DNA from: Promethearchaeota archaeon
Lineage (GTDB): Archaea; Asgardarchaeota; Lokiarchaeia; Sigyniarchaeales; SOKP01
NCBI GenBank assembly: GCA_018238625.1
Contig: JABCSY010000068.1
Coordinates: 1 to 21,456 of the forward strand
Length of the DNA stretch: 21,456 bases
Direction of reading: 5' to 3'
Shown: positions 2,147-19,144 of the stretch, piece by piece
Position numbering within the stretch: position 1 is the first letter of the stretch
Layout: each line of letters begins with the position of its first letter
Translations under genes and position numbers: made by a program
Notes under the pieces: generated by a model
What the model saw: only the letters and a program-made list of their open reading frames with translations
Told to the model about the DNA's origin: nothing
Databases searched by the model: none

Positions 2147-2263
2147 GCTCTCTTTATTTAATAATTAATAAAAAAAATTAGTCTTTGATAGAATTTTGAT
2201 AATCTTTAAAAAACAACCTAAAATATGCATTATATACATACATATACATTTAGAGGGAATAAA

Positions 2264-3265
2264 ATGAATGAAAGGCATTTTCAAGAATTTTTAGAGAATA
2301 ATAAAATTGATGAAAGCATAATAAAAAATTATCTCTCGAAAATTAGAGATTATGAAAAATTTCTCAACAAAGAAAATCTGACTCTCGAAACAGTTGAACC
2401 TAAAAAATTAGTTGATTACACTGAATATTTAGTTTCTATTGAGAAAGAATCTGTTTTAGATTTTCTTAGAGCATTAATGAATTATGCTAATTATTCCAAG
2501 AAATACGATTTTATTACTGAAGCGATAGATATTGCGGAGTCTTACATAGCAATGGAAACTTTGTTTTCAAGAATAGTTGAATTTCATGGTGAGCAGATAA
2601 GAAACGAGATTTTTAAAGATTTGATTATTCCTCCTTTAGGCGTACATCCAGAAAGGAAGCCTGAGTTCACGAAAATTGTTATGAAAAGAATGGAAGATAA
2701 ACTTGGAAAAGAGAATTCAATTAGACTTCTTTCACCATGCCTTCATGGCCGCCCACCTGATGATATTGAAGGAGACAAAAAAGACATCAAAGAATTAGGT
2801 ATTGATGGTTTTTTAGTAAAGAAACACCAAAAGTTAATCCAAAGGCTCAAGAAGCATAGAGACGAGGGGACATTAGAATTTGCTCAGTATGTTGATGATG
2901 AAGTAATAGAATTTGTGAGAAACAATCAAATGTTAGCTGAAGGCGTAAGAGAAGGAAATATCATTTATCTGTGCAAGCATCCTTATCAAATAAAGAAATT
3001 TCTAAATGTTAAAGACGACAAAATGAAAAGGTTTTATCTTTGTTACTGCCCTTGGATTCGAGGAGCATTAAAAAGCGGAACTGAAAGTGAAATCTCAAAA
3101 GATTTCTGTTATTGCAGTGCAGGTTGGTATAAACTTTATTGGGATCAAATTTTTGAACAATCTGTAAAAGTTGAACCTATTAAAACCGCCCTTGACGGTG
3201 CATTGGAATGCAAATTTGCCGTTCATTTACCTGAAAATGTATTAAACTCAAATAAAACGAAATAG
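2264..3265 (+). CDS. Cys-motif protein, DUF6144-like/V4R-like C-terminal domain; function unknown
   Basis: CYCPW...FCYCSAGWYK...W...VKVE...CKFAVHLP pattern. Start moved from 2225 to ATG 2264 because a purine-rich GAGGGA precedes it and a TATA-like TTATATA lies inside the called N-terminus. Confidence 0.6.
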   Translation: MNERHFQEFLENNKIDESIIKNYLSKIRDYEKFLNKENLTLETVEPKKLVDYTEYLVSIEKESVLDFLRALMNYANYSKKYDFITEAIDIAESYIAMETLFSRIVEFHGEQIRNEIFKDLIIPPLGVHPERKPEFTKIVMKRMEDKLGKENSIRLLSPCLHGRPPDDIEGDKKDIKELGIDGFLVKKHQKLIQRLKKHRDEGTLEFAQYVDDEVIEFVRNNQMLAEGVREGNIIYLCKHPYQIKKFLNVKDDKMKRFYLCYCPWIRGALKSGTESEISKDFCYCSAGWYKLYWDQIFEQSVKVEPIKTALDGALECKFAVHLPENVLNSNKTK

Positions 3266-6736: not shown

Positions 6737-6804
6737 ATCATCGTTGTCGAAGAATAAGATTTTTTCTAATTATATTTATATTTACATAGAATTAAGAATA
6801 TAAT

Positions 6805-7638
6805 ATGAAATTCGAAAATTTAATTTATAAAGAGATCGACCAAGTGGCTTGGATAACGCTCAATCGCCCTGATGTCATGAACGCGTTAAGCATGAAGCTT
6901 TCTGAAGAGATAGTTACGGCAATAGAAATCGTAAGGCAATCTACAAAACTTAAGTTCTTAGTTATCAAGGGCGCGGGGGATAATTTCTGCGTGGGCGATG
7001 ATATTAAAGAAATGATTAAGTGGGGAAATGCGAATGATATAACAAGAAGAGTACGATATTATCAGAATATGGCTAATCAACTCGAGGAATTGGATAAAAT
7101 CACGATTGCAGCAGTAGACGGTTTTGCGGTAGGCGGTGGCTTGGAGATTACGATGGTGTGTGATTTTGTAATTGCCACCGAGCGCTCGAAATGGGGCATG
7201 CCAGAAGTAGACGTCGGAATAACTCCCGGGTGGGGCGGTACTACGCGATTATCTCGACTCATAGGTCGACGGAGAGCTAAAGAGATTAACCTTATTGGCG
7301 CGCTCCACTCTGGGGAAAAGGCTGTAAAATGGAATCTATGGAACCGGGTTGTGCCCAACGACCAACTTGATACAGAAGTAGAACTATTATTGGACGTACT
7401 TAAATCTAAAAACCAGCAAGGCATGCGTCAACTAAAATTTATTATTAATCGCGGAGTAGAGTGTGACTTATACACGGCTCAAGGCTTTGAAGTTTTATCT
7501 GGTGCTTTAACTGGAGCTGTTAGCGGAATGTGGAAAATAAAGGACGCTGATCAAGGTAAAGGTGTAATCGGATTCACTGAAAAGGATGGTCTGTGGCAAA
7601 CTAGAAGACGGTTAGCAAAAGATTTCTGGGTTGATTAA
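6805..7638 (+). CDS. Enoyl-CoA hydratase/isomerase (crotonase family)
   Basis: ITLNRPDVMNALS, FCVGDDI, AAVDGFAVGGGLE, GMPEVDVGITPGWGGT; both catalytic Glu positions present. Confidence 0.95.
   Translation: MKFENLIYKEIDQVAWITLNRPDVMNALSMKLSEEIVTAIEIVRQSTKLKFLVIKGAGDNFCVGDDIKEMIKWGNANDITRRVRYYQNMANQLEELDKITIAAVDGFAVGGGLEITMVCDFVIATERSKWGMPEVDVGITPGWGGTTRLSRLIGRRRAKEINLIGALHSGEKAVKWNLWNRVVPNDQLDTEVELLLDVLKSKNQQGMRQLKFIINRGVECDLYTAQGFEVLSGALTGAVSGMWKIKDADQGKGVIGFTEKDGLWQTRRRLAKDFWVD
7603..7638. repeat. Left copy of an exact 36-bp direct repeat (last 12 codons of the hydratase gene, including TAA)
   Basis: AGAAGACGGTTAGCAAAAGATTTCTGGGTTGATTAA, identical to 8451-8486. Confidence 0.98.
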
Positions 7639-7763
7639 CTCTTCCTATATTGTTTTAAAGGAAAAGGTAAAAATATATTATTTCTCAAAAAATATATAAA
7701 ACACAAGAAATCTATTTTCAATACACACCAAAATCTAAATAAATATTAAAAGAGATATAATAT

Positions 7764-8033
7764 ATGATGATATCTGAAGAAGATAAAAAAATAATATTAT
7801 TATACGCAAGAAAATACAACTTAGAAAAAGTTATTCTCTTCGGTTCCTCTAAAGAGAGGGAGGATGCGCGAGATATAGATATTGGTGTAAGAGGTATAGA
7901 ACCTAAATTATTTTTTGATTTTTGCTGGGAATTGTACAGGGATTTATCGAAACCAGTAGATGTAATTGATATAAGTATAGATTGTTTATTTAATAAACTA
8001 ATAGAGGAAGATGGGTTAGTATTATATGGCTAA
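7764..8033 (+). CDS. Minimal nucleotidyltransferase (MNT) antitoxin, MntA-like
   Basis: 89 aa, VILFGS-x8-DIDIGV and downstream VDVI; overlaps the HEPN gene by 8 nt. Confidence 0.9.
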   Translation: MMISEEDKKIILLYARKYNLEKVILFGSSKEREDARDIDIGVRGIEPKLFFDFCWELYRDLSKPVDVIDISIDCLFNKLIEEDGLVLYG

Positions 8034-8463
8034 TGTTAAGGACAAAATTCTTGCGGAGAATGAAAATATTGAAAAAATTTTAATTGAATTGGAAAAAGTG
8101 AAAAAAAAACCGAGTAAAGAACTCGTAATTCTTGTAGGAATTGGAGCCTTTCTTCAAAATATCTATACGGGTATGGAAAATATTTTAAAACAAATACTTT
8201 TACACCAAAACTTACCAATCCCTGAGTCACCCACATGGCATAAAGATTTATTGAATTTTGCTTTTGACAATAAAATAATATCGAAAGAAATTCTTGATAA
8301 AATTGGTAAGTATTTAGTTTTTCGGCACTTTTTTACCCATGCTTATGGATTTTTTATTGATGAGGAGAAATTAGAACCACTTATGAATAATATTTCTGAA
8401 ATTTATTCTGAGTTTAAAAGAGAAATAGATGAATATCTCCTAAAGGAACAAGAAGACGGTTAG
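8026..8463 (+). CDS. HEPN ribonuclease toxin, HepT/DUF86-like
   Basis: R-x4-H-x-Y motif (FRHFFTHAYG), LQNIYTGMENIL and WHKDLL; paired with MNT. Confidence 0.9.
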   Translation: MANVKDKILAENENIEKILIELEKVKKKPSKELVILVGIGAFLQNIYTGMENILKQILLHQNLPIPESPTWHKDLLNFAFDNKIISKEILDKIGKYLVFRHFFTHAYGFFIDEEKLEPLMNNISEIYSEFKREIDEYLLKEQEDG

Positions 8464-8486
8464 CAAAAGATTTCTGGGTTGATTAA
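8451..8486. repeat. Right copy of the exact 36-bp direct repeat
   Basis: Identical to 7603-7638; contains the HEPN stop (TAG 8461-8463) and the A of the flavin reductase ATG (8486). Confidence 0.98.
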
Positions 8487-9046
8487 TGCTTATGAAGATA
8501 CAAATTAATAAAACAAACACCCCTATCGTATCTCCTGCCGTTGTTGTTTCGGTAGGTGAATGGGACGAGGCAAATCTCATAACGCTTGCGTGGGTTGCTC
8601 GAGTAGTGTCTGAACCGCCGGTAATGTCCGTTTCTATTCGACCATCAAGGCACTCGTATTCCCTAATTGAAAAATTGGAAGAATTCGTGATTAACGTTCC
8701 GAACGCAGGCCAAATTCGAGAGATGGATTTCTGTGGAACGAGAACAGGGAAGAAAGTAGATAAATGGAAAGAACTTAACTTAACGAAACTAAAAGGTGCT
8801 GAAGTCGATGTACCACTCATTAAAGAATTCCCGATTAATATTGAATGTAAAGTCATCAAAAAAATAAAGCTTGGCAGTCACATAATTTATTTAGGTGAAG
8901 TTTTGGCAGTTCATGTCGATGAGGAAAAATTAACCGGCAAAAAACTAGATCCGTTAAAGCAAGACCAAGTTGTATACATCACGGGTAATTATTATGGCTT
9001 AGTTAAAGAACCGCTTGAAAAACAAGCATTTTCTGTGAGGTCCTAA
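8486..9046 (+). CDS. Flavin reductase-like FMN-binding split-barrel protein (flavoredoxin family)
   Basis: NLITLAW, PPVMSVSIRPSRHSY, EFVINVP, DFCGTRTG, PLIKEFPINIECKV, GSHIIYLGEV. Confidence 0.9.
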   Translation: MLMKIQINKTNTPIVSPAVVVSVGEWDEANLITLAWVARVVSEPPVMSVSIRPSRHSYSLIEKLEEFVINVPNAGQIREMDFCGTRTGKKVDKWKELNLTKLKGAEVDVPLIKEFPINIECKVIKKIKLGSHIIYLGEVLAVHVDEEKLTGKKLDPLKQDQVVYITGNYYGLVKEPLEKQAFSVRS

Positions 9047-9189
9047 TTAGTATTACAATAGGGAATTGAAAAATCGAACGAATCAGAAATAAGAAAAACG
9101 GAAAAATTAATTAGACATGGATCGTTAATTTAATTAATTCTTTAAGAATAGAATAAAGAATTGTTTTCAAAAAAAAATTGGTTTTAAAA

Positions 9190-9468
9190 TTGGTAAAAGG
9201 AACAGTAAAATGGTTTAATAGCCGAAAAGGCTTTGGATTTATAAACTCTGAAGAAGGAAACGACGTATTTGTTCATTACACCGCATTAAGTGGTGGAGAG
9301 GACGAATATTTGACGCTAAACGAAAACGATAAGGTTGAGTTTGACGTAACAGAAGGTCAGAAAGGACCACAAGCTTCAAATGTTGTGGTAACCGAGAAAG
9401 CTCCCCCACAGTTTGGTTCATATAACCGCGGTGGTGGCGGTGGCGGCGGTAGACGAAATCGCTATTAA
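9190..9468 (+). CDS. csp: Cold-shock domain protein with Gly/Arg-rich C-terminal tail
   Basis: GTVKWFN, RNP1 KGFGFI, RNP2 [13 protein letters not shown]; tail [15 protein letters not shown]. Start TTG 9190 preferred, TTG 9178 possible. Confidence 0.95.
9430..9450 (+). repeat. (GGY)7 codon tract encoding poly-Gly
   Basis: GGTGGTGGCGGTGGCGGCGGT. Confidence 0.9.
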
Positions 9469-9711
9469 TTTATTAATTAAGTGAAGTAGTATAAATCTAA
9501 CAAAGTAATAATTTAACATAAGTATTAAATAATAATTAGTAAAAATTTTTGCGATTTTGCGATTTTTTATTTAACCTTATCTTTTTTTTAATAATTTTTA
9601 AGCTGAACTATTGATTTTGAGATTATCGCTTTCAAGTATCATAATAATTAATAAATTTAAAACATCCTTTTTCTATATACAAAAAATAAAAAGAGAAAAA
9701 AGTGGGTATTT

Positions 9712-9906
9712 ATTACAGAAAAAAAGGATGACAGTAAGATTCCAAAAAAAGAACATTCAGTTGAAGAGGTTGCTAAAATTATGGTTGAAAACATGAAAGC
9801 AAACATGGAAAACCCAAACTTTTTGAATGAAAAAGAAGCTCTATTGGAAGAAGTTACTAAAGAGGTTTTAAAAAGAAGAAAGGAAAGACAAAAAAATAAA
9901 GAATAA
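9712..9906 (+). CDS. Small charged helical protein (64 aa) missed by the ORF track, probable ATT start
   Basis: (M)TEKKDDSKIPKKEHSVEEVAKIMVENMKANMENPNFLNEKEALLEEVTKEVLKRRKERQKNKE*; purine-rich coding bias; AAAGTG 7 nt before ATT, as at the thiolase start. First in-frame ATG (9781) would give 41 aa. Confidence 0.6.
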   Translation: MTEKKDDSKIPKKEHSVEEVAKIMVENMKANMENPNFLNEKEALLEEVTKEVLKRRKERQKNKE

Positions 9907-9936
9907 ATTACTATGAAGTTAATTGATGTTTCAATC

Positions 9937-10803
9937 TTAGATAATCTCTCTGATTGATTCTTCATGTAATACTTTTGCGTTAAATTTTAAGACTCGTTTG
10001 ATTTTATCAAGGTCTGAGTAGATTGCGCCTGTTGGACAAACCATCACACAATTGAAACAGTAAATACATCCTTTTTGCTTCTTAGGTAAGTCAGATACAA
10101 TAATTACGCGTGTTGGGCAGTTTTCCTCACACAAGCCACAAGAAGTGCAGAGATCCTTATTGAAGTTGAGTTTTGGCACTCGGAAATTACTTCCAAAAAG
10201 TCGAATAAATGGATATATTACTTGAACTTTCAGATATTGATAGTTCAACATTTTTGATAATTCTCTCCACTCAATAGGGTTAGTAATTCTATACTTAACG
10301 GTTTCACAAAACTTCAATATTAGGTTTTGATCTTCAGAACTGGGAAACTCAATTGAATGTTGATAAAAATGTTTTGCTCTAAGTTTGAGAGCTCCCAATA
10401 CGGTGTAATGTTTCTTGTGAAGTATCTTAGCCATATTTATGAGCGTTTTTCCAGAGTTTACATGTCCATAAGTAGTAAAACAGAAAGAATATCGCCCTCG
10501 ACCTTTATTAATGGGAATGTTAGGGATTCCTTCCAAAAATATTTTTACAGGATCTAACATGTTTAGATGATATGTAGGAGAGCCAACGCCGAGCAATGTT
10601 GTTTCAGAGATAATAGATTCCAATTCACTGGGATCGATCCTTGCTAGGTCAATAAGTAAAACTTCCCCTTCTCCCTTTAGTCGTTCTGCGATTAATTCTG
10701 CACATTTCTTAGTACACCCATTAGGGGACATATAGACAATAGTTACTTTAGAGAAGACATCACGTTCATTAATTGTTTCTTCGCGGGATCTAAGATTTGC
10801 CAT
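9937..10803 (-). CDS. EFR1-family flavodoxin fused to a 2x[4Fe-4S] ferredoxin
   Basis: VYMSPNGCTKK and GVGSPTY flavodoxin motifs; CTSCGLCEENCP and CIYCFNCVMVCP. Confidence 0.9.
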   Translation of the reverse strand: MANLRSREETINERDVFSKVTIVYMSPNGCTKKCAELIAERLKGEGEVLLIDLARIDPSELESIISETTLLGVGSPTYHLNMLDPVKIFLEGIPNIPINKGRGRYSFCFTTYGHVNSGKTLINMAKILHKKHYTVLGALKLRAKHFYQHSIEFPSSEDQNLILKFCETVKYRITNPIEWRELSKMLNYQYLKVQVIYPFIRLFGSNFRVPKLNFNKDLCTSCGLCEENCPTRVIIVSDLPKKQKGCIYCFNCVMVCPTGAIYSDLDKIKRVLKFNAKVLHEESIREII

Positions 10804-10923
10804 AGTACTGGTGTTCCTTAATTCAAAGATATTTAATTATTAAAACTCAATGTTCTGGTTTTGATAATGTTAATGATTTAAATTAAAATAAAAAAATAGA
10901 GAATAAATTTGATTGATAATAAA

Positions 10924-12648
10924 TTATTCTGGGCTTGTACGTTTTTTAAGATATATGTATATGACAGCAGCTAAGGCTACTCCTCCAACTATAGAAACAG
11001 CGACGATAGTGATAATGATGCCTGGATCGAGACCAGCAGTGGCTTTCACAACAGTAACAGCTTCAGATGCTTCATTTCCTATAATATCTTTTGCATAGAA
11101 AGTAATTGTAACATCTCCTTCAGTTAACGCTGCCCATGCCGTTTGATTAATTATCCCGTTTTCTATAAAAGTGTAGTTGTTAATACCTCCATCTATAGTA
11201 TACCACATTGAATCTACATAAACATCAGTGATAGTTACGTCGAAAGAGGGAGCAATTAAGCCAAACACATCGCTTGAAGTAGGTGAATTAATCGTTATTG
11301 ATGGTGCGCCATCTTCTGCTATAGGTAAATAATCTATGCTTCCCGCAGACCCACCTATATATGTATAAGGGTCATCGACAATTCCATCATTTGGATCTGT
11401 ATCTGGAGTAGTCCAATTATCCCAGTAATTCCCAATTGACGTGCTATTCCAAGAGTTATCAGTTCCATCATCCTCCGCATGTTTTCCATTCTCCAGAAAG
11501 AAATTTTGATAAATTGAGTTGTTATCACACCCTGATTCAATATACATTCCCAGAGTATTATTATAAAAGATATTATCAATGATGTCATTGTAATCACCTG
11601 TCTCTATATATATTCCATAATCGTTATTGCTTATTTTGTTACCCTTGATGGTGTTATTGCTACCATCACCTAAAGATATCCCTTCGTAAGTATTACCGTT
11701 TGCGGTGTTTCCCGTAATGTTATTGTAATGACTATTGTCTATAAATATAAACACGTCGTTATAGTTTGCGGTGTTTCCCGAAACCGTGTTATGATCACTA
11801 AAATATAAATATATCCCGTATTCTCCGTTATCATTTGCTGTGTTTCCCTGAATGGTATTATTATCACTGGATGCTAGATGGATTCCATAATTAATATTAC
11901 CATTTGCGGTGTTTCCAGAGATAGTGCTATTATTACAATCCGTGTCTATAGCTATTCCTGAATCTCCATTATTGTTTACAGAGCTTCCTGAGAGAGTATT
12001 GTTAGAACCGTACTCTATATATATCCCTGATTCTCCGTTATCATTTGCAGTGTTTCCCGTAATATTATTGTAACCACAATAACTTAAATAAATCCCAAAA
12101 TTATTATCGTTTGCGGTGTTTCCCGAGATAGTATTGTTATTACATTCGTATAGATATATCCCTTCGTTAGTATTACCGTTTGCGGTGTTTCCCGAGATAG
12201 TATTGTTATTGCAAGTATCTATATCTATCCCCAGCTCCAAATTAGAACATGTATTATTAATTAATCGAGCGTTATTCACATCTTGTAAATAGATTCCTGT
12301 ATCGGTATTATTAATCAAGCAGTCTTGAATAATGAAACTTACATCCGATTGCACAATATCAATCCCTTTCCCTGTCCCGGAACCATTTATTTTGAGATTT
12401 TCAATGATATATGGATCATTCCAGTTTCCTGAACCAGAACACCACGATTGACTTTCTGCCCATGTCCAATTGTGTGCACCAACTCCGGTAGCAGCACCAT
12501 CAATAAAGATTGGTTCATGCACAGCCGATTGTTTCGGGACGCTCAACTCAGCTTGTACTCCGTTGTTGAAAATAAGCGTGTTGTTAAGTAAAAACACCAT
12601 AAATAATCCTATAAATAAAACTGTTATTTTTTTTAGTTTAGATTCCAT
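10924..12648 (-). CDS. Membrane-anchored NosD/right-handed parallel beta-helix surface protein
   Basis: N-terminal signal peptide; WCSGSGNWNDPYIIEN cap; ~23-aa NNTISGNTAN..GIYL repeats; GNYW end cap; Ig-like segment; C-terminal TM followed by KKR. Confidence 0.9.
   Translation of the reverse strand: MESKLKKITVLFIGLFMVFLLNNTLIFNNGVQAELSVPKQSAVHEPIFIDGAATGVGAHNWTWAESQSWCSGSGNWNDPYIIENLKINGSGTGKGIDIVQSDVSFIIQDCLINNTDTGIYLQDVNNARLINNTCSNLELGIDIDTCNNNTISGNTANGNTNEGIYLYECNNNTISGNTANDNNFGIYLSYCGYNNITGNTANDNGESGIYIEYGSNNTLSGSSVNNNGDSGIAIDTDCNNSTISGNTANGNINYGIHLASSDNNTIQGNTANDNGEYGIYLYFSDHNTVSGNTANYNDVFIFIDNSHYNNITGNTANGNTYEGISLGDGSNNTIKGNKISNNDYGIYIETGDYNDIIDNIFYNNTLGMYIESGCDNNSIYQNFFLENGKHAEDDGTDNSWNSTSIGNYWDNWTTPDTDPNDGIVDDPYTYIGGSAGSIDYLPIAEDGAPSITINSPTSSDVFGLIAPSFDVTITDVYVDSMWYTIDGGINNYTFIENGIINQTAWAALTEGDVTITFYAKDIIGNEASEAVTVVKATAGLDPGIIITIVAVSIVGGVALAAVIYIYLKKRTSPE
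11676..12210. repeat. Near-identical internal coding repeats of the beta-helix gene
   Basis: 34 bp exact at 12108-12141 and 12177-12210; 38/39 at 11676-11714 and 12156-12194; further related unit at ~11809-11848 and ~12019-12058. Confidence 0.9.
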
Positions 12649-12913
12649 TTCATTATACCTAAATTTATTTGATAATTAACTCTAATAAGTTATGCTTATA
12701 ATAAGTATTTTACGAATGAAAACACTTGCATTTTTGGAAATTAGAAAAGATTCAATGTTGTGCCAAATAACTCTGATATGACGAGTTACAAGGGATTTAT
12801 AGTTGGTCTGGGTTTTGATGTGAGAGCTTGATTGTTGATAAACATATATAAGATTAGGATGTAAATAAATCCATAGTTCAATTTAATTATAAAAAGTAAA
12901 GTAAAAAAAAGAT

Positions 12914-13471
12914 TTAATTCTTCAATAAATTTGCGTAGTTTTCAGTAAATTTGTTTATTTGATTCCAATCTCTCAGATCATTTCTTTGATTAGGTTTAAT
13001 TCTGGGATCTTCTTTACTAACCATCTTTATCATTTTTTTTCCTACAAATCCGACATTTGAATCTTTAGATAAATCAAGAACTCCTCCAAATACATCGTAT
13101 AAGCCAGCTGTTATTCCATATTGATTTAATACGTCCTCTATGTATTCCTTTTTTAATTCAACTACTTTTTCAGGATTGCTTGCCAGACCGGAGCTTACAA
13201 AAACACCTAAAACTACATTAGAATTTTTGAAGAATTCTAAATTATTTTCTATGAATTTTTTCGTTTCTTTTGTCCATTGACCTACTTTAATACCTGAACC
13301 GATTATGATTCCATCGTATTCCTCTAAATTGGGTTGATTTTCAGTTATCAAATCTTTAGAATTTATAGCAGAAGTATCAATCCCTTTTTCTTTTAAAGTA
13401 TTCACTATTTTACTTGAAACTTCTTCAGTACTTCCATATCTCGTTCCATAAACGATTAGAACTTTTTTCAT
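12914..13471 (-). CDS. Flavodoxin domain protein (HemG/Flavodoxin_5-like)
   Basis: LIVYGTRYGSTEEV, YDGIIIGSGI, FGGVLD, DLRDWNQI; GGAGGT SD upstream. Confidence 0.9.
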   Translation of the reverse strand: MKKVLIVYGTRYGSTEEVSSKIVNTLKEKGIDTSAINSKDLITENQPNLEEYDGIIIGSGIKVGQWTKETKKFIENNLEFFKNSNVVLGVFVSSGLASNPEKVVELKKEYIEDVLNQYGITAGLYDVFGGVLDLSKDSNVGFVGKKMIKMVSKEDPRIKPNQRNDLRDWNQINKFTENYANLLKN

Positions 13472-13511
13472 TTTTACATTACCTCCATTTTTTTCTTTTT
13501 TTATTTTATTT

Positions 13512-13730
13512 TCATAGATTTTTTAATTTTGATTTGTTTATATCAAGTCGTAGATCTCCATTCTCAAACTGGATATAAAGAACAGAATCGTCAATTAACT
13601 TAATTTGGGTTATTTCTTTAAAGTTACAAGAGAAAACAAACTCATTTTTTAAGGAATCCCAATTAAAGTAGCTAATATCTTTAATATCCTTTAATTCAAT
13701 GTTTAAATTATTTTTTTTAAGCCTTTTCAT
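13512..13730 (-). CDS. Small hypothetical protein, 72 aa
   Basis: TAATG coupling to the upstream gene; alternating beta-strand-like pattern (VLYIQFENGDLRLDI). Confidence 0.65.
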   Translation of the reverse strand: MKRLKKNNLNIELKDIKDISYFNWDSLKNEFVFSCNFKEITQIKLIDDSVLYIQFENGDLRLDINKSKLKNL

Positions 13731-14143
13731 TATTTAACAACTCCATCTTGAAATCGTGATTTATTACGGTAAAGATAGATGAGTACGATTCCTGGAACAA
13801 AGAACCCTAAAGCTGCTGTGAATTGTATTGTAATCCCCCATATATCAAATATAATGGTTGCAATACTAACAAGGATTACACCATTGAACCCCCATTTCTT
13901 CATTTGCCATAGTCCGAGAGTAGTGATAAACCCATTTATTCCCAGAATAAAGAACATTACAATTATGAACTGAAAGACAATCGGAGATACGGATACATCT
14001 AACATTGAACCTTCTGTAATATTAAGGATTCCAAAATAAATTCTGAGATATGAATTCAGAGTCCATAAAAGAAAGATAAGAATAAATGAAAAAGATCTTT
14101 TTTTTGATATTTTTTTATTGTCATTCATCAACTCTATAATCAC
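13730..14143 (-). CDS. Hypothetical membrane protein, about 4 TM
   Basis: Four hydrophobic segments, GLWQMKKWG loop. The called GTG lies in the GAGGTG SD, so the true start is probably TTG/ATG a few codons downstream. Confidence 0.75.
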   Translation of the reverse strand: MIIELMNDNKKISKKRSFSFILIFLLWTLNSYLRIYFGILNITEGSMLDVSVSPIVFQFIIVMFFILGINGFITTLGLWQMKKWGFNGVILVSIATIIFDIWGITIQFTAALGFFVPGIVLIYLYRNKSRFQDGVVK

Positions 14144-14144
14144 C

Positions 14145-14564
14145 TCATATGTTTTTCTCTATTTTTTTTTGAAAATATTTTCCCCAAAGAATAGATGAGA
14201 TTAAGGGGGTTATAAGTACTAAAATCCACATTCTACCTTGAAAAATATTATAGTCAGCGAATAACCGTTCCCATGAATGTCCTACAATGTAATGACCAAA
14301 GATAAATTCGAAGGCGATTGTAATAATTACCCAAAGAAGACCTATATAAAGAGAATCTCTGTTTTCATATTTACCTTTAATGTTATTGTAATATAGAGCA
14401 ATAACTAGAAAAAAGATACAGATACCTATAAAACAACTTATAATATGCCCAACAAACTCACCCACTATTGGTGAATACACTCCATTTCGAATTGTTCCGT
14501 TAATAATTGCGATAATACACATTAAAAACCAAATTCCTAATGCTTTTACATATATCTTATTCAT
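14145..14564 (-). CDS. Hypothetical membrane protein, about 4 TM
   Basis: AIINGTIR, IGLLWVIITIAFEFIFGHY, SWERLFADYN..GRMW; start moved from 14636 to ATG 14564 after a GGAGGA SD. Confidence 0.8.
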   Translation of the reverse strand: MNKIYVKALGIWFLMCIIAIINGTIRNGVYSPIVGEFVGHIISCFIGICIFFLVIALYYNNIKGKYENRDSLYIGLLWVIITIAFEFIFGHYIVGHSWERLFADYNIFQGRMWILVLITPLISSILWGKYFQKKIEKNI

Positions 14565-14693
14565 TTTTATTTTTCCTCCTATTATTTTTTTTTTTATATA
14601 TTTCAAAGTCATATTTTTATGACTCTTCATGATCAAGACATTTGAAAACTAAGATATAAATCAATTTTGACTAATTTCCAAACTATTTTGCCT

Positions 14694-14726
14694 AATACGA
14701 ATTTTTAGCAACAATCCGAATTTTTA
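14694..14726. promoter_or_regulatory. Direct repeat, possible operator upstream of the membrane-protein/flavodoxin operon
   Basis: AATACGAATTTTTA 14694-14707 and AATCCGAATTTTTA 14713-14726 (13/14, 19-bp period). Confidence 0.35.
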
Positions 14727-14769
14727 AGAAAATAGTAATATCTAATATAGGAAATAGACTGAAGTAAAA

Positions 14770-15510
14770 CTATGCATAAACTTTTCCTTTACTCCAAAAA
14801 TGCTCCCATAATTTTTTAAGAAAGTCAATTCCTTTAACATCTTTAATAATAATAGCTTCAGAATAATCAGGTTTATCATCACTTGTTTTAGGAAAGCAGA
14901 TTAACCCCTGTCCTAAGGAATTAAATGCCATCGCAATAGTGATGTTATCAAGAATGCGAACCCTAAATTGAGTTTTGGGATGAGCCTTTCTTGTAGTCCC
15001 CTCGCGCTTTAAAATTTCAGGAACAAAGATGTAGTTTACTTTTTTAGCTGATACACTCTCAAATGGAAATGCAGCAGCGACCATAACCCACCTCTCTTCT
15101 GCTGGTGTTTTTTGAAATTCTTTTATTTTAAACATTACTTCACCTGTTCCAGAAACAAATTCACAATCTTTTATGACATCGATCTCTCGAATTAAATGCA
15201 TAGGAAGGTCATCAATTCGATGAGTTCTAAAATATTTAGAATACCGAAAGATAAAATCAATAGGACGAAAAATTGACATTACGACCATTCCAAAGGAACT
15301 AATTTCATACTTCCGCCCAGATGGCAACTCTTTTTGAATAAACCCACATTTCATTAACCTACTTAAGTGTCGTGAAACTTCCGATTTCGAAATATCCCCT
15401 AATTTTTCGGCGATATCAGTTAAAGTTGCTGCTTTTTCAGTAAGCATAAAAAGGATTTTAATCCTTACGGGATTGGAAAGTTCTGAAATCAAATCAGAAT
15501 ATTCACTCAT
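14770..15510 (-). CDS. ArsR-type winged-helix transcription regulator with archaeal C-terminal domain
   Basis: LSNPVRIKIL, ISKSEVSRHLSRLMKCGFI, YEISSFG, then YFRTHRIDDLP. Confidence 0.85.
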   Translation of the reverse strand: MSEYSDLISELSNPVRIKILFMLTEKAATLTDIAEKLGDISKSEVSRHLSRLMKCGFIQKELPSGRKYEISSFGMVVMSIFRPIDFIFRYSKYFRTHRIDDLPMHLIREIDVIKDCEFVSGTGEVMFKIKEFQKTPAEERWVMVAAAFPFESVSAKKVNYIFVPEILKREGTTRKAHPKTQFRVRILDNITIAMAFNSLGQGLICFPKTSDDKPDYSEAIIIKDVKGIDFLKKLWEHFWSKGKVYA

Positions 15511-15580
15511 AAATTTGTATTATTATTAAACTATTTATCATTTCCTATAGACTTAATAGATAAGGTAAAACATATTTATC

Positions 15581-16417
15581 TTAAAATATCTTTTTCATTC
15601 TTTTTTCCTTTAACCAATCTATTCCAAAATCTACTATATCTCGAATGGAAATCAATCGAGCTTCAGCCAAACCAATTTTACCGGGCTTATAATTGATTTT
15701 AGATTCATAATCCTTTCCAAGTTGCTCAAAATCATCGCTATCATAATCTAGACCTTCCCATTCTACCCACTGTCTCTGATTATTCACCATCATTGCACAT
15801 CCATTTCGAATATAGCTTTTTCCAGGGAATTCGCTTCGATATTCAGCAAGATGCAACGAAGAGTTATTCTCGTGGTTTACTCCCACTAATAATATTTGTC
15901 CGTTAAGATCGTAAAGGCGGGAAGTTGGAGAATTCTCGCCTAATTCTGCTTCTAATCCGTGATTTTCGGTAATAAATTTTGCTTGCTTACCCCAAGCAGT
16001 GAACGATGAAGTAGGATGATTACTCCGAAAGACATTAGTCCAATTCCTAAAAGTTTCTACAATTCGTCCCATTGCTCTAGTAGGTGTTATTTTAACTTCG
16101 AAGGCGGGCATCTCTTCTCTTATTATACTCCACCAACTTTTAGGTACGGGAGGATTTTCCCATTGAGATGGTTCGGAATTGCCACTGGTAAATGTCGGCA
16201 TTACTAATGTACCTTCTGAAGTTAAAACTTGTGTTAGCGCTTTAATTACGGATACTGGCCCTCCAACAGTCCAACCAATTTTACTCAGCGAACTATGCAT
16301 TATAATAATTGAACCTTTTTCAACACCAAGCGTTTTAAAATCGCGTTTTAAGGAAGTTATAGTGTTAGGTTGCTTTGTTAATTTAACAACATTGCCTTCA
16401 GAGATTTTATTTTCCAT
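15581..16417 (-). CDS. AAC(3)/YokD-family aminoglycoside N3-acetyltransferase-like protein
   Basis: MHSSLSKIGW, GTLVMPTF, MGRIVETFR, RSNHP, ILLVGV, NSSLHLAE. Confidence 0.92.
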   Translation of the reverse strand: MENKISEGNVVKLTKQPNTITSLKRDFKTLGVEKGSIIIMHSSLSKIGWTVGGPVSVIKALTQVLTSEGTLVMPTFTSGNSEPSQWENPPVPKSWWSIIREEMPAFEVKITPTRAMGRIVETFRNWTNVFRSNHPTSSFTAWGKQAKFITENHGLEAELGENSPTSRLYDLNGQILLVGVNHENNSSLHLAEYRSEFPGKSYIRNGCAMMVNNQRQWVEWEGLDYDSDDFEQLGKDYESKINYKPGKIGLAEARLISIRDIVDFGIDWLKEKRMKKIF

Positions 16418-16427
16418 AGTATATTAA

Positions 16428-16470
16428 ATATTTATAGTTAAAGAGTCTTAAAATTATTTCTAATGAGATT
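16428..16470. repeat. Left copy of a degenerate 43-bp direct repeat; contains the probable aac(3) TATA box (TTTTAAGA on -)
   Basis: ATATTTATAGTTAAAGAGTCTTAAAATTATTTCTAATGAGATT; 34/43 ungapped identity to 17064-17106. Confidence 0.75.
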
Positions 16471-16523
16471 AGAATATTTAAATAATTTTATTGAATTAAT
16501 AATAAAAGAAAGAATAGAAAACA

Positions 16524-16811
16524 CTATATCTGAAGGCGCTGTTTTGAATGGAGAATTGCCACTACTTTGATTAATTTCTTATTCTCATCAATTTGATAAA
16601 GGATTCTATAATCTTTAAAAAGTAATTTTCTAATATTATGTGTCTCTAATTGAGGAATTATTCCATACCTTTTAGGGAATTCTCTAAGAGATTCGATTTT
16701 ATTATAAAAGTCTTCTAGAAAGTGTTCTGCATATTGTATAGAATTTTCTGAGTAATAATTATAAATGTTTTTTAGCTGTCGTTTGGCCTTTTCTGAGATT
16801 CTAATTTCCAT
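16524..16811 (-). CDS. RelE/ParE-family type II toxin
   Basis: 95 aa; ISEKAKRQLKNIYNY, LREFP, IRKL, YRILYQI, VVAILH; downstream of and overlapping a small acidic gene. Confidence 0.88.
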   Translation of the reverse strand: MEIRISEKAKRQLKNIYNYYSENSIQYAEHFLEDFYNKIESLREFPKRYGIIPQLETHNIRKLLFKDYRILYQIDENKKLIKVVAILHSKQRLQI

Positions 16812-17002
16812 TTTCCTGATAAACTTTTCATTTCTTCAAGAGAATAAGATCTTTCTTGCTTGAAATCCTCCAAGCCTTCTAAAACTTGTTTTTTAATGTA
16901 TAATACATCAATTAAATCTTCAATTTCCTCAGATGTAGTATCTTCAGGTAAGTCTTTGATGAGGGAGAGTATTTTTTCTTTAATTTTGCTCATATTTATC
17001 AT
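16772..17002 (-). CDS. Cognate antitoxin
   Basis: 76 aa; LPEDTTSEEI...LYIKKQVLEGLEDFKQER pattern typical of ParE-associated antitoxins; start may be ATG 16993. Confidence 0.8.
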   Translation of the reverse strand: MINMSKIKEKILSLIKDLPEDTTSEEIEDLIDVLYIKKQVLEGLEDFKQERSYSLEEMKSLSGKWKLESQKRPNDS

Positions 17003-17063
17003 AATTTTAGAGACATCTTAGACATATAAAACTTCTCATTTAATAATGATGTTTAAGCTCAAT

Positions 17064-17106
17064 ATATTTATGGCTAAAGAGTCATACAATTTTTACTTAT
17101 TAGAGT
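17064..17106. repeat. Right copy of the degenerate 43-bp direct repeat
   Basis: ATATTTATGGCTAAAGAGTCATACAATTTTTACTTATTAGAGT; 34/43 identity to 16428-16470. Confidence 0.75.
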
Positions 17107-17127
17107 GAATTTATTTTCTATACAGAT

Positions 17128-17149
17128 TAAAAAAAAATTAAAAATAAAA
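17128..17149 (-). terminator. Oligo-T terminator after the acetoacetate-CoA ligase gene
   Basis: T-tracts on the - strand immediately after the stop. Confidence 0.5.
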
Positions 17150-19144
17150 TTATTGAAGTTTATCTTTCATTTCCATATAGTAATCTAAAGAGGTGGGATT
17201 CCTTAACGCGCTTCGGTTGGCCACTTCCATACCGTGAATGATCTTTGTTACGGCAATTTCGACTTTTTTGTTGCTGAAAGTATAAGGAATGCCATCTTCG
17301 GGTGCTTGAAAGATTAATTTCGGTACATGCCTTGGGGAGGTTTTTCCTCGTAAAACTTGCCTTATTTTTGCTTGTAAATCGTCGGTTAGTTCGTATCCTT
17401 CGTTTAACAGCACAAACATTATAATACGTACATCTCCTTCCCATTTTTGGCCTATAACAAGACTATCAGCGATCTCAGGTAATTGTTCTACGACGTTATA
17501 GATTTCGGCAGTACCAATTCGTACTCCAGAAGGCTTTAAAACGGCGTCCGAACGACCCCAGAAGGTAATACCTCCAGTATCGCTATGAATGACTATGTAA
17601 TCGCCATGCCGCCAAACCATTTTTCCTACGTCTTTATAGTAGTCAAAATAGGCAGCTTTATATTTAGTCATGTTATCGTCATCGCCCCAGAAATAAATTG
17701 GCATCGAAGGTACGGGAGCTTCACATACAAGTTCGGCCTGTAAATCTTCAATAGGTTCGGCTTTCTCAGAATACGATTCTACTTTCATCGCTAAAGCGCG
17801 CCCTTGCAATTCTCCAGAATATACAGGTAAAATAGGTATTGCTCCAGCAAAACAACCGTTAATATCTGTCCCGCCACTGATTGAATTGAAAAAGAGATCT
17901 TTTTTAATCTCTCGATAGACATATTCAAAACCTTCAGGAGATAATGTAGATGCGGTTTGCGAGATCTCTCTTAATTCACTTAGATCATATTTCTCAGCGG
18001 GCTTTACCCCAAGTCCCATTAGGTAATGAATATAGGCCGCACTAGTACCAAATATAGTTACCTTATGTTTTTCTATTAATTCAAAAAACCTTAATGGTTC
18101 TGGATATAACGGATTTCCATCGTACAAAAATATTGTTGCACCCGTGGCTAAGGCACTGATAAGCCAGTTCCACATCATCCATGAAGGCGCTGTAATATAA
18201 TTAATGACATCGCTTCTTTTTACATCAGTAGATAAGATTAATTCTTTTAAATGATTGATCAATACACCACCAGCGCCTTGAACCATACACTTAGGTTTTC
18301 CCGTTGTTCCTGATGAAAACATCACGTATAGAGGATGGTCAAAAGGTAACTGTTCATAGTCAAGATTTGGATCTTCCTCTTTTGAAATAAAATCATCCCA
18401 ATGTACTGCGTTTGGAATGTGGCTTATCTTAGGTTTTCCATCAGTGATGTAAGACGCCACTACTACTTTTTCTATCGAAGGAATAGCTTCAACCACAGTT
18501 TTAGCATTCTCAGTGATATTAAATTCTTTGTCCCTATAGAAATATCCATCAACGGTAAAGAGAACTCTTGGCTCAATTTGTCCAAAACGATCGATTACTG
18601 CGTTCGATTGTAATTCTGCGCCACATGAAGCCCAAGTTGCTCCAATGGCAGTAGCAGCTAACATGGCAATAGGGGTTTCAATCAAATTTGGAATGTAGGA
18701 AACAACTCGATCCCCTGCTTTAACTCCCATTTCCTTGAGAGATTTTGCTAAGCGTGCAACTACCTTATTTAGTTCGGCATAAGTAATTTGCTTCGAAACC
18801 TTGGTTTCTCCTTGAAAAACAAAAGCTAATTGGTCATCTTTATACTTGAGTAGATTCTCCGCAAAATTCAATCTTGCCCCGGGAAACCATTTGGTTCCTG
18901 GGAAAACACTTAGATTCTCAACAACTTTATCATATGGTTTAGAAGCTACAATACCTCCAAAGTCCCACATGCCCGCCCAGAAATCCTCGATCTTTTCTAC
19001 AGACCATCTATATAGATCTTTACCTCCCTTAATTTCTTGACCATATTTTTTATTTACATATCCGATAAACTTGGTTATCTCAGCGTTTTTAATCCATTCA
19101 TCGGAGGGTTCCCATAATTTTTTTTTATTTGAAATGATTAACAC
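17150..19144 (-). CDS. Acetoacetate-CoA ligase (acetoacetyl-CoA synthetase)
   Basis: WFPGARLNFAENLL, MFSSGTTGKPKC, SWMMWNWL, SISGGTD, VWRHGD, GRSDAVLKPSGVRIGTAEIY, KKVE; true start possibly ATT 19135. Confidence 0.95.
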   Translation of the reverse strand: MLIISNKKKLWEPSDEWIKNAEITKFIGYVNKKYGQEIKGGKDLYRWSVEKIEDFWAGMWDFGGIVASKPYDKVVENLSVFPGTKWFPGARLNFAENLLKYKDDQLAFVFQGETKVSKQITYAELNKVVARLAKSLKEMGVKAGDRVVSYIPNLIETPIAMLAATAIGATWASCGAELQSNAVIDRFGQIEPRVLFTVDGYFYRDKEFNITENAKTVVEAIPSIEKVVVASYITDGKPKISHIPNAVHWDDFISKEEDPNLDYEQLPFDHPLYVMFSSGTTGKPKCMVQGAGGVLINHLKELILSTDVKRSDVINYITAPSWMMWNWLISALATGATIFLYDGNPLYPEPLRFFELIEKHKVTIFGTSAAYIHYLMGLGVKPAEKYDLSELREISQTASTLSPEGFEYVYREIKKDLFFNSISGGTDINGCFAGAIPILPVYSGELQGRALAMKVESYSEKAEPIEDLQAELVCEAPVPSMPIYFWGDDDNMTKYKAAYFDYYKDVGKMVWRHGDYIVIHSDTGGITFWGRSDAVLKPSGVRIGTAEIYNVVEQLPEIADSLVIGQKWEGDVRIIMFVLLNEGYELTDDLQAKIRQVLRGKTSPRHVPKLIFQAPEDGIPYTFSNKKVEIAVTKIIHGMEVANRSALRNPTSLDYYMEMKDKLQ

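Follow-up and report, generated by a model that had tools for sequence, protein, structure and literature searches.

Gene-tail repeats flanking an MNT/HepT-like cassette in an uncultured archaeon: a plausible scar of recombination between alleles

Background

Islands carried by tyrosine integrases regenerate the 3' ends of the genes into which they insert, and satellites consisting of cargo only can be mobilised in trans. The locus described here resembles such elements in that its direct repeat corresponds to the 3' end of a target gene and that relatives hold empty sites, whereas it differs from them in having no recombinase, no core common to the repeats of different copies, repeats of variable length, and an insert that contains the native spacer of another allele. 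It lies in a 21,456-nt stretch of DNA from a Promethearchaeota archaeon, the whole of which is hereafter called the window (the genome to which it belongs is G000), and its cargo is a pair of genes encoding a minimal nucleotidyltransferase (MNT) and a HEPN protein. MNT-HEPN pairs of the MntA/HepT family are type VII toxin-antitoxin (TA) systems. As in MntA/HepT, the gene for a small nucleotidyltransferase shares an overlap with the HEPN gene downstream of it, which carries an Rx4H motif; on the other hand, HepT in the window has a chimeric C-terminus with codons derived from an enoyl-CoA hydratase gene (ECH), and the roles of toxin and antitoxin are putative.

Homology-facilitated illegitimate recombination (HFIR) is documented for bacteria capable of transformation and for conjugation in E. 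coli (PMC3240628). In the E. coli screen, 56 of 60 clones were single crossovers of circular molecules that duplicated part of the homologous locus, with duplications of 109-950 bp in 14 sequenced clones (PMC3240628). Such HFIR or Campbell-type integration shares with the present locus the combination of one homologous and one novel junction, an insert that is a relative's version of the locus, and, as the clones of that screen are described, a duplication of variable length flanking the insert. The duplications reported here (40-247 bp) are shorter, however, and the event has been reconstructed by comparing genomes in an uncultured archaeon.

An HFIR-like displacement model has also been proposed for the effector-immunity modules of type VI secretion (T6SS) in V. 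cholerae (PMC5361080). In the displacement of 3' modules at Rhs/CDI/T6SS loci, as it is set out there, modules are added by transfer between relatives behind a conserved upstream anchor, old 3' pieces are retained downstream, and mosaic arrays differ among close relatives, in all of which the present locus is similar. In contrast to the orphan genes retained in those systems, a 40-bp gene tail is retained here, the gene that serves as anchor is metabolic and bears no relation to the cargo, which is a type VII-like TA pair, and the host is an archaeon. Aloposons, which are described as large tRNA-targeted elements (PMC8813620), are unrelated to the cassette. A search of the literature on TA loci within direct repeats and on Asgard mobile elements with long target duplications returned nothing describing the case of the ECH locus. 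Gene flow in these archaea is, to our knowledge, poorly documented.

Results

Structure of the locus

The locus extends from ECH to a cold-shock protein gene and comprises the following features, given as positions in the window.

6805..7638, + strand: ECH, enoyl-CoA hydratase gene (Pfam ECH_1, 4.9e-50)
7599..7638, + strand: repeat copy 1, the final 40 bp of ECH (36 bp exact, 7603-7638)
7639..7681, + strand: i, a shortened copy of the native spacer between ECH and the cold-shock gene, not cassette-specific
7682..7763, + strand: upstream region of the cassette, of which the last ~45 bp (from about 7720) are AT-rich and TATA-like
7764..8033, + strand: MNT, putative antitoxin (Pfam Polbeta)
8026..8463, + strand: HepT-like HEPN RNase, putative toxin (Pfam HepT-like_2, 1.4e-19)
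8446..8447, no strand: single novel (illegitimate) junction, joining the HepT 3' end to ECH position ~795
8447..8486, + strand: repeat copy 2, a 40-bp ECH tail of the kind found before FR in alleles of the FR type
8486..9046, + strand: FR, flavin reductase gene (Pfam Flavin_Reduct, 9.3e-31)
9047..9113, + strand: t, the spacer between FR and csp, a diverged counterpart of i
9178..9468, + strand: csp, cold-shock protein gene (Pfam CSD, 3.2e-26)

As a preliminary description of this DNA had stated, a 36-mer is present in two exact copies (7603-7638 and 8451-8486), the first of which begins in register with the codons of the ECH reading frame (7603-6805 = 798 = 266 x 3) and ends at the ECH TAA. 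No match was obtained in any of 100 dinucleotide-preserving shuffles, even when up to three mismatches were allowed, and the repeat can be extended to 40 bp with one mismatch (7599-7638 and 8447-8486). The 812 bp between the exact copies were said to hold an AT-rich region, MNT and HEPN, and all three are found there (MNT, HepT and 125 bp of AT-rich upstream sequence), but the TAG stop codon of HepT (8461-8463), which had been overlooked, falls beyond this interval, inside copy 2. Copy 2 now provides both the HepT stop codon and the region directly upstream of the FR start, and its right end, TAATG, is a native junction in genomes with an empty site.

MNT and HepT form a two-gene module, being adjacent and co-directional with an overlap of 8 bp. 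The former scores 28.9 bits (1.3e-06) with Pfam Polbeta, the cut-off of which is 26.9, and its translation carries FGSS...DIDIG, i.e. the GS...DxD signature of the minimal nucleotidyltransferase domain; the latter matches HepT-like_2 with 70.6 bits against a cut-off of 27, and carries RHFFTH, the Rx4-6H motif of HEPN. Since the scores for the NCBIfam equivalogs MntA_antitoxin (23.9 bits) and HepT_toxin (19 bits) are far under their cut-offs of 60, the pair is at best a distant subfamily of MntA/HepT. The last six codons of HepT in the window, stop included, are sequence of the ECH fragment, and the HepT reading frame of genomes G056 and G008 ends otherwise, five codons past the point where the window switches to ECH sequence. 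The HepT gene of G008 has a 25-bp deletion and a frameshift, its MNT being intact. BLASTN similarity to related cassettes at a second locus, locus B (L086 and L087), begins at 7720; the ~45 bp common to them is the likely promoter. A scan of viral contigs with HepT gave no relative, and a viral origin is unsupported.

Authenticity of the assembled structure

The duplicated 36-mer might in principle have been made by a mis-join of the metagenome assembly at a shared k-mer. G000 is an assembly of 201 contigs with an estimated contamination of 7.6%, and Logan unitigs of two public runs, X2 and X5, break within the repeat (at 7609-8480 and 7627-8480), as they should at k=31 if the 36-bp repeat is exact. 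Genome G016 and metagenome contig L082, however, were assembled independently with this gene order and these junctions, and their two repeats are not identical; run X15, which belongs to another study, has a single Logan contig that extends from position 6873 to 8494, and hence across both junctions, at about 95% identity. The structure is accordingly real, and we regard an artefact as extremely improbable. Neither an empty-site joint nor a circle joint was present among the contigs of four (X2, X5, X11 and X15) of 24 public runs, which cannot show rare forms; the only joint listed, in X11 from 6740 to 8063, looks spurious, having 20 letters on its shorter side. An 848-bp circle could possibly arise through host recombination between the repeats.

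Empty sites and the native spacer

Orthologues of ECH (E<=1e-100) are found in 29 of the 42 genomes of the genus. The sequence 3' of the ECH stop codon is wholly different between clades, which makes this codon a synteny breakpoint across the genus; FR adjoins ECH in only six of the 42 genomes, and csp lies downstream of ECH or FR at 15 of the 30 ECH loci tabulated. In the model discussed below, ECH would be the conserved left anchor, and csp the conserved right anchor, of a variable locus. Half of the six genomes with FR beside ECH (G020, G042 and G051) carry the empty site, in which the ECH TAA overlaps the FR ATG as TAATG. The empty site that had been reconstructed from the window alone thus exists in relatives, and the insertion polymorphism is genuine.

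Positions 7652-7681 of the window match the sequence directly downstream of ECH in G004 at 100% over 30 nt, and that in G007, G014 and G052 at 92-97%. Alignment by eye in seven genomes without FR shows that the spacer i, and with it the ECH|i boundary, is native there. The insert consequently opens with 43 bp of the native ECH-downstream spacer of relatives, which makes the inserted block part of a different allele of this locus; the view that it is a minimal element is not borne out. Since a parental allele has the ECH|i boundary and another the ECH-TAATG-FR boundary as its native state, 8446|8447 is the only new one. This one junction is identical in G000, G016 and L082, the identity of the cassette to those of G056 and G008 ends at 8446, and no extended homology and no clear microhomology were seen across it. 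The transition from ECH to i is seamless in FR-less relatives, and that of ECH-TAATG-FR in empty-site relatives. The same spacer in G052 contains a 2.8-kb insert without long duplication.

Distribution and conservation of the cassette

The full cassette is present in four of the 42 genomes, always beside ECH, in one copy per genome (a search of G000 returned only the copy in the window) and in three arrangements; a metagenome scan added one contig of the window's type and two of the G056 type. The last 40 bp of ECH are duplicated in G000, G016 and L082, 67 bp of the FR-csp spacer t (9047..9113) in G008, and ~247 bp, comprising the ECH 3' end and spacer, in G056, L083 and L084. These arrangements have the left junction i|cassette in common and differ at their right ends. 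At the second locus, in L086, the related cassette is flanked by 74 bp of unrelated spacer, the two copies being 89% identical. No common core was found when the 40-bp, 67-bp, ~247-bp and 74-bp flanks were compared.

The cassette of the window is 99, 98 and 95% identical to those of G016, G056 and G008, respectively, and the adjacent ECH gene 91.7, 79.1 and 90.2% at the nucleotide level. That the cassette (95-99%) is far more conserved than its flanks (79-92%) indicates recent exchange between species, and these sequence comparisons support the view that the MNT/HepT module moves between them.

The two 36-mers, identical in G000, differ at 4 of 36 positions in G016 and at 3 of 36 in L082, copy 1 having CGATTGG and TTTTTGG as against TTAGC and TTTCTGG in copy 2, and copy 1 of G016 has exactly the sequence of the one copy in G042, an empty-site genome. 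In G016 and L082 the copies are therefore different alleles. Furthermore, since these two share the arrangement and junctions of the window while their repeats have diverged, the insertion is not recent, contrary to what had been supposed.

In G056, the ECH genes of G013 (89.6%) and G010 (89.1%) resemble the 192-bp ECH part of copy 2 more closely than does copy 1 of G056 itself, which is absent from the best 12 matches of copy 2, all of at least 83.9%. A tree of this ECH tail does not reject the two G056 copies as sisters (lnL difference 3.94, p-AU 0.089; 10 of 16 inner branches open), and sliding identity between G056 and G010 is patchy (79-100%), with no clean breakpoint.

Discussion

On balance, we consider it somewhat probable that the repeats are the scar of recombination between two alleles, one bearing the cassette and the other FR, in which one junction was homologous and the other illegitimate. 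The interval from ECH to csp would be a recombination hotspot in this archaeal genus with several allele types, including ECH-TAATG-FR-t-csp and ECH-i-cassette-...-csp, the latter having the cassette behind the native spacer. The window would be a chimera, whose left part (ECH, i and the cassette) came from a cassette-bearing allele and whose right part (the 40-bp tail of ECH, then FR, t and csp) came from an FR-bearing one, the two having been joined in a single recombination event, probably following DNA transfer between related species. Ordinary homologous recombination in the shared flank would account for one side, and the illegitimate join at 8446|8447 for the other, a pattern that fits HFIR and equally a single crossover by a circularised fragment with short homology. 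If the alleles are chimeric in this way, the apparent target duplication consists of the ECH tail from each parent, and is not the product of a transposase or an integrase. G008 would represent the reciprocal solution, with the FR block first and the 67-bp spacer duplicated. Copy 2 may persist because the HepT stop codon and the sequence directly upstream of the FR start lie in it. The join removed the T-rich tail of the cassette, which may have left FR open to read-through from upstream; in addition, loss of a TA pair is expected to be harmful, so that selection would act against a simple allelic exchange that puts FR in place of the cassette, and additive chimeras would be favoured.

Several observations count against an allele chimera. 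The postulated parent, an FR-clade ECH-i-cassette-...-csp allele without FR, was found neither among the 42 genomes nor among nine metagenome loci. Copy 1 of ECH in all three carriers is of the FR-clade type up to the stop codon, so that a donor from the FR-less clade would need a crossover within the last ~20-40 bp or a later conversion; the T-to-C variant invoked for gene conversion in G000 is a single site that is also present in more distant ECH genes. The arrangement in G008 requires two non-homologous junctions, not one, and the sister relationship of the G056 copies that the tree leaves standing would amount to duplication in situ. Finally, other cassettes at other loci, both related and unrelated ones, are likewise flanked by local duplications, which could mean a general duplication-making insertion, and the purD locus of G000 behaves in an att-like manner.

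Such a duplication-making process, inserting small cassettes and copying 30-250 bp of the target in one step, for instance through capture of a fragment at a break with long, staggered and filled-in ends or through template switching during replication, would make the 40-bp repeat a true target duplication, the result of which homologous recombination merely spreads. It would explain why locus-specific duplications recur, not only at the ECH locus with 40, 67 and ~247 bp, but also as the 74 bp around the L086 cassette, as 118 bp (79%) around a HepT/MNT pair on contig C82 of G000, where an Rfam search gave nothing, and as 41 nt (80%) around the window's own ParDE (ParE) pair at 16428-17104. Likewise, nested partial copies occur at the ParDE locus of contig C139, with extents that differ in G000, G020 and G008, and of 17 other isolated long-repeat pairs in G000 two hold clear TA-like genes and a third a weak GNAT pair. 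The left end of the block, however, coincides exactly with the end of homology between allele types, i.e. the ECH stop, which homologous recombination predicts and random capture does not; the two G056 copies are more than 16% apart in their ECH part, yet the cassette between them is 98% identical to that of the window; and the insert in the same spacer of G052 lacks a long duplication. Moreover, long flanking repeats as a general property of MNT cassettes can be rejected, there being no enrichment at MNT loci (BLASTN gives 2 of 14 MNT loci and 16 of 300 random places; for exact repeats of at least 18 nt the figures are 2 of 14 and 7 of 300). We therefore hold duplication upon insertion to be unlikely. 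A broader version is, to our judgement, just as doubtful, namely that small integrase-less cassettes, TA pairs and other single genes alike, share one uncharacterised mobility that leaves target repeats of 30-250 bp, the ECH cassette being an eroded example; its mechanism could be a recombinase acting in trans at gene 3' ends, as the purD arrays suggest, or break repair or template switching that duplicates a long target.

Mobilisation of the cassette in trans at the ECH 3' end by a tyrosine recombinase encoded elsewhere, with the repeats as attL and attR and excision as an 848-bp circle, is less probable still. It agrees with a repeat that regenerates the ECH 3' end and stops at the stop codon, with the single repeat copy at the empty sites of G020, G042 and G051, and with the two tyrosine recombinases of the genome (PF00589, contigs C48 and C89). 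An att-like process may indeed exist in the lineage, as an imperfectly palindromic 28-mer at the purD 3' end, exact in eight of nine copies and with one mismatch in the ninth, bounds different small inserts in four species and has diverged in G008, which is an empty-site genome at purD. Nevertheless, the preliminary description's idea of an att-like site, or of a long target duplication of fixed length, is not supported at the ECH locus, where cassette copies sit in different flanks of 40 to ~247 bp without a shared core. The repeats of G016 and L082 differ at the positions given above, no palindromic arms were seen on reading the 36-mer, and the cassette has no other copy in the genome. The insert was correctly described as having no integrase, since it holds the two cassette reading frames only, and no Pfam or NCBIfam recombinase family was matched by any of the 24 reading frames scanned in the window. 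An insertion sequence or transposon was also considered and rejected, there being no transposase, duplications of 40 to ~247 bp that are not fixed in length, and one copy per genome; in addition, no inverted repeat at the ends of the insert was present among the 25 longest pairs listed.

Under the favoured reading of recombination between alleles, the locus would provide a case in which a TA cassette that brings no recombinase spreads from species to species within an uncultured archaeal genus. The homology of the conserved gene beside it would carry the cassette along, and would leave a duplication of that gene's tail resembling an attachment site or else a long target duplication. It calls for caution in taking gene-tail repeats as proof of new mobile elements. 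If addictive, such a cassette may resist allelic replacement, and may thereby tilt recombination towards additive chimeras, in which cassette and incoming gene are both retained. The repeat-flanked cassettes and the array of att-like 28-mers at purD could, if followed up, outweigh the finding at the ECH locus in importance.

The reading frame at 2225-3265 of the window was rejected as an integrase (weak Phage_int_SAM_5 match, E 0.003, with no NCBIfam family and no PDB sequence relative). It has a weak terminase-like PHROG match, and a homologue lies directly after ECH in G015 and G057.

Host genome and comparison set

The window corresponds to contig C8 of an assembly (G000) that totals 4.29 Mb in 201 contigs, with 32% G+C. 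The small-subunit rRNA of this genome matched the archaeal Rfam model with 1458.7 bits, and Ras-family and longin-domain genes were also encountered in it, which is consistent with an Asgard-type archaeon as the host. For comparison, we used 42 species genomes of the genus.

The repeats and the genes around them

The preliminary description had reported an exact 36-bp duplication around an MNT-HEPN gene pair, and this was borne out: the 36-mer occurs at 7603-7638 and again at 8451-8486, and such a match was seen in none of 100 dinucleotide-preserving shuffles. If one mismatch is allowed, the repeat grows to 40 bp (7599-7638 and 8447-8486). The left copy (copy 1) is the in-frame tail of the enoyl-CoA hydratase gene (ECH), ending at its TAA, and the right copy (copy 2) terminates in TAATG, the ATG of which is the start of the flavin reductase gene (FR). 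Besides the MNT/HepT pair (hereafter the cassette), an AT-rich stretch is also present between the copies. The genes are as follows.

6805-7638, ECH, 277 codons (Pfam ECH_1, 4.9e-50)
7764-8033, MNT, minimal nucleotidyltransferase, 89 codons (Polbeta, 28.9 bits against a cut-off of 26.9)
8026-8463, HepT-like HEPN gene, 145 codons (70.6 bits)
8486-9046, FR, flavin reductase (9.3e-31)
9178-9468, cold-shock protein gene (CSD, 3.2e-26)

The motifs GSS...DID of MNT and RHFFTH of HepT can be read in the translations, and the pair scores far under the cut-offs of the NCBIfam MntA and HepT equivalog models. The stop codon of HepT (8461-8463) sits within copy 2, a point that had been overlooked.

Empty sites and age of the insertion

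An ECH orthologue (E<=1e-100) is found in 29 of the 42 genomes, and FR (at least 92% amino-acid identity) immediately follows it in only six genomes of the genus. The empty allele that had been predicted for relatives, in which ECH and FR overlap as TAATG, exists in G020, G042 and G051, thus the insertion polymorphism is real. The worry that the arrangement might be an assembly artefact is met by independent assemblies, which exclude it: the gene order of the window is recovered in the genome G016, in the metagenome contig L082, and in a contig of the public run X15 from a different study, which covers 6873 to 8494 at ~95% identity. In G008, the order is ECH, FR and then the cassette.

The insertion had also been taken as recent, a view that the comparison does not uphold, as the arrangement is common to G016 and L082, in which the two 36-mers mismatch each other at 4 and 3 positions, respectively. 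Furthermore, G000, G016 and L082 share one right junction, the HepT frame exiting the cassette at 8446 and ECH sequence running from 8447. Copy 1 of G016 and L082 carries the states CGATTGG and TTTTTGG, which are present, or nearly so, in the single copies of G042 and G008, copy 1 of G016 being identical to the single copy of G042; copy 2 of G016 and L082 carries TTAGC and TTTCTGG. Only G000, among the carriers, shows copy-2 states in copy 1. We read the identity of its copies as probable gene conversion between them rather than as youth, on the basis of few sites, an argument weakened by the occurrence of TTC at the codon concerned in distant ECH genes as well.

Origin of the insert

When the 812-bp insert was used as the query against the genus, its positions 14-43 (window 7652-7681) were found with 100% identity in G004, directly 3' of the ECH stop, and with 92-97% identity in G007, G014 and G052. 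In seven FR-less genomes (G004, G011, G010, G002, G007, G024 and G013), the ECH stop is followed by a spacer of ~55 bp, here called 'i', and then by the cold-shock protein gene's upstream region; a shortened 'i' makes up window 7639-7681. Alignment by eye shows 't', our name for the 67-bp interval that separates FR from the cold-shock gene in the FR clade (9047-9113), to be a diverged counterpart of 'i'. As 'i' is native 3' of ECH in FR-less genomes, FR-less alleles have ECH|i as a native boundary, and FR alleles have ECH-TAATG-FR as theirs; 8446|8447 is the sole junction of the window absent from both allele types. The insert is most simply a fragment of another allele of the same locus.

The ECH stop is a general synteny breakpoint, downstream of which the content is wholly different among clades; in G052, an unrelated 2.8-kb two-gene insert lies within 'i' without a long duplication. 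Several FR-less relatives (G004, G002, G052 and G007) have the cold-shock protein gene in two or three tandem paralogous copies. A 346-codon ORF of no assigned family at window 2225-3265 has a weak Phage_int_SAM_5 match (E 0.003), and a homologue of it (62-67% identical) immediately follows the ECH stop in G015 and G057 (loci L057 and L058).

Other arrangements of the cassette

The full cassette is present in 4 of the 42 genomes, each time beside ECH and in one copy per genome. In G056 and the metagenome loci L083 and L084, FR is absent and the order is ECH, 'i', cassette, a second ECH 3' copy with 'i', and the cold-shock gene region; the second ECH piece comprises the last ~190 bp, is diverged and carries a TGG-to-TGA change, so that the duplication with 'i' is ~247 bp. 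The series in G008 runs ECH, FR, 't', 'i', cassette, a 19-bp T-rich tail, partial 'i', another 't' and the cold-shock gene, with a duplication of 67 bp and about 5 mismatches. The left junction i|cassette is common to all versions, with a 43-bp deletion there in G008. The right end varies: in G008, the HepT stop is retained together with the T-rich tail, a tail found after the stop also in the contig L085 from a second locus; in G056, the cassette ends at the stop; and in the window's type, it ends 5 codons before that. No core common to the flanking repeats of these arrangements was found. In addition, HepT of G008 (L022, contig C264) has a 25-bp deletion causing a frameshift before its Rx4H motif while MNT is intact, which suggests decay of the toxin in this species.

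Identity of the cassette and of ECH between G000 and other carriers
Pair; cassette; ECH (nucleotide)
G000 and G016; 99%; 91.7%
G000 and G056; 98%; 79.1%
G000 and G008; 95%; 90.2%

As the cassette is more similar than ECH in each pair, it has been exchanged between species later than the divergence of the surrounding genes, which confirms its mobility. In the genus genomes, the exchanged cassette is always in the same interval, the simplest explanation being that homologous flanks guide it there.

A recombination model

We propose that the window is a chimera, the left part of which (ECH, 'i', cassette) would derive from a cassette-bearing allele and the right part (the last 40 bp of ECH, FR, 't', cold-shock gene) from an FR-bearing allele, joined by one crossover in shared sequence and one illegitimate join. 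The repeat copies would then be the ECH tails of the two parents, one each, which explains their exact end points, copy 1 at the stop before 'i' and copy 2 at TAATG, and the allelic difference between the copies in G016 and L082; the truncation of HepT and its borrowed stop codon are likewise accounted for by the chimera. G008 would be the reciprocal product, an FR block anchored in ECH and ending in a non-homologous t|i join; that it requires two novel junctions is a weakness of the model.

The joining could proceed by homology-facilitated illegitimate recombination of a linear fragment, or by a single crossover of a circularised fragment bearing short ECH homology, and the two pathways, yielding the same product, are indistinguishable here. 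The latter has direct experimental precedent in an E. coli screen, in which single crossovers of this type accounted for 56 of 60 clones and the 14 clones sequenced had duplications of the homologous locus spanning 109-950 bp (PMC3240628). For T6SS effector-immunity modules, a displacement model of a related type has been put forward, as it had been earlier for Rhs loci (PMC5361080). Copy 2 may be retained because it supplies the stop codon of HepT and the bases immediately before the FR start, and loss of the T-rich tail may allow read-through into FR; an addictive toxin-antitoxin pair might resist replacement by the FR allele, such that only additive chimeras survive.

The ECH part of copy 2 in G056 (192 bp) is 89.6% identical to G013 and 89.1% to G010, and its identity to copy 1 of the same genome is below 83.9%, outside its best 12 matches; being nearer to other species, copy 2 seems compatible with a donor-plus-recipient origin. 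The tree of this part is poorly resolved, holding the two G056 copies together costing only 3.94 log-likelihood units (p-AU 0.089), and G056 and G010, compared in sliding windows, show patchy identity with no clear breakpoint. Neither the 42 genomes nor the 9 metagenome loci contained the FR-clade parent without FR that the model postulates.

The preliminary description had favoured an element of the attachment-site type mobilised in trans, or a mechanism of long target duplication. The former is disfavoured, as the flanks differ among cassette copies, the repeats are variable in length and diverged, and no recombinase was found among the 24 window ORFs scanned; two tyrosine recombinases are encoded elsewhere in G000. 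The latter is likewise unsupported for the cassette, yet an insertion process generating long target duplications could still account for the primary events, since comparable structures are found repeatedly. In contigs L085-L088, a thiolase-like gene has a related cassette (81-90% nucleotide identity) upstream of it, and in L086 this cassette stands between 74-bp repeats of the local spacer; a HepT/MNT pair on contig C82 of G000 lies between 118-bp repeats (79% identical), and a ParE pair in the window between 41-nt repeats (80% identical). MNT loci show no excess of flanking repeats, however (2 of 14, compared with 16 of 300 random places). The chimera model, the most likely explanation, stands for a known kind of process, here in an uncultured archaeal lineage, for which our literature searches returned no description of it.

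Other repeat-flanked cassettes

The spacer upstream of the thiolase-like gene is a toxin-antitoxin hotspot too; in L087 (864-1864), a second, unrelated HEPN (PF05168) and MNT pair lies on the opposite strand right after the cassette. The C82 pair (C82:39941-41190, L091; HepT PF01934) adjoins a PIN-domain gene, and its direct repeat has a 23-nt exact core. The ParE repeats (window 16428-17104) are copies of the spacer upstream of an aminoglycoside-acetyltransferase-like gene, and enclose:

16524-16811, minus strand, ParE toxin (Pfam 1.4e-17)
16772-17002, minus strand, upstream partner of ParE, 76 codons

G016 holds a different 2.5-kb insert at this place, and window 9627-17159 is missing entirely from G020. 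At C139:18800-21200 of G000 (L104), a ParD/ParE pair and a 96-codon ORF lie between BRCT-domain and CCG-domain genes; G000 has both cassettes, G020 only the ORF (L123), and G008 only ParDE, with a 132-bp flank copy (L124). Each is bounded by partial copies of local sequence, the extents of which vary among the three genomes. Other isolated pairs of exact direct repeats, 32-41 nt long and spaced by 0.9-2.0 kb, surround one to three genes on C11, C52, C117, C190, C136 and C100 of G000 (L092, L096, L102, L106, L103 and L100), including a UPF0175 and PIN/DUF3368-like pair, an epimerase, an ECH paralogue, and a 73-codon ORF with a weak GNAT-like ORF.

A different pattern, which merits separate study, was found at the 3' end of purD (GARS; G000 C76:14318-16128, L097 and L125; relatives L126-L130), where a 28-mer, the centre of an imperfect palindrome, occurs in four species with 8 of 9 copies exact: two in G000, three in G020, two in G051 and two in G016, the second of which has one mismatch. 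These copies bound differing inserts of 0.5-1.8 kb, and the 28-mer looks like a putative attachment site for integrase-less cassettes, mainly because of which we still grant a more novel reading of cassette mobility a small chance. The copies are 516 and 771 bp apart in G020, 951 bp in G051 and 1354 bp in G016; the G000 insert (1.78 kb) holds a single-copy 484-codon ORF of no known family, and G008 has one diverged copy and no insert.
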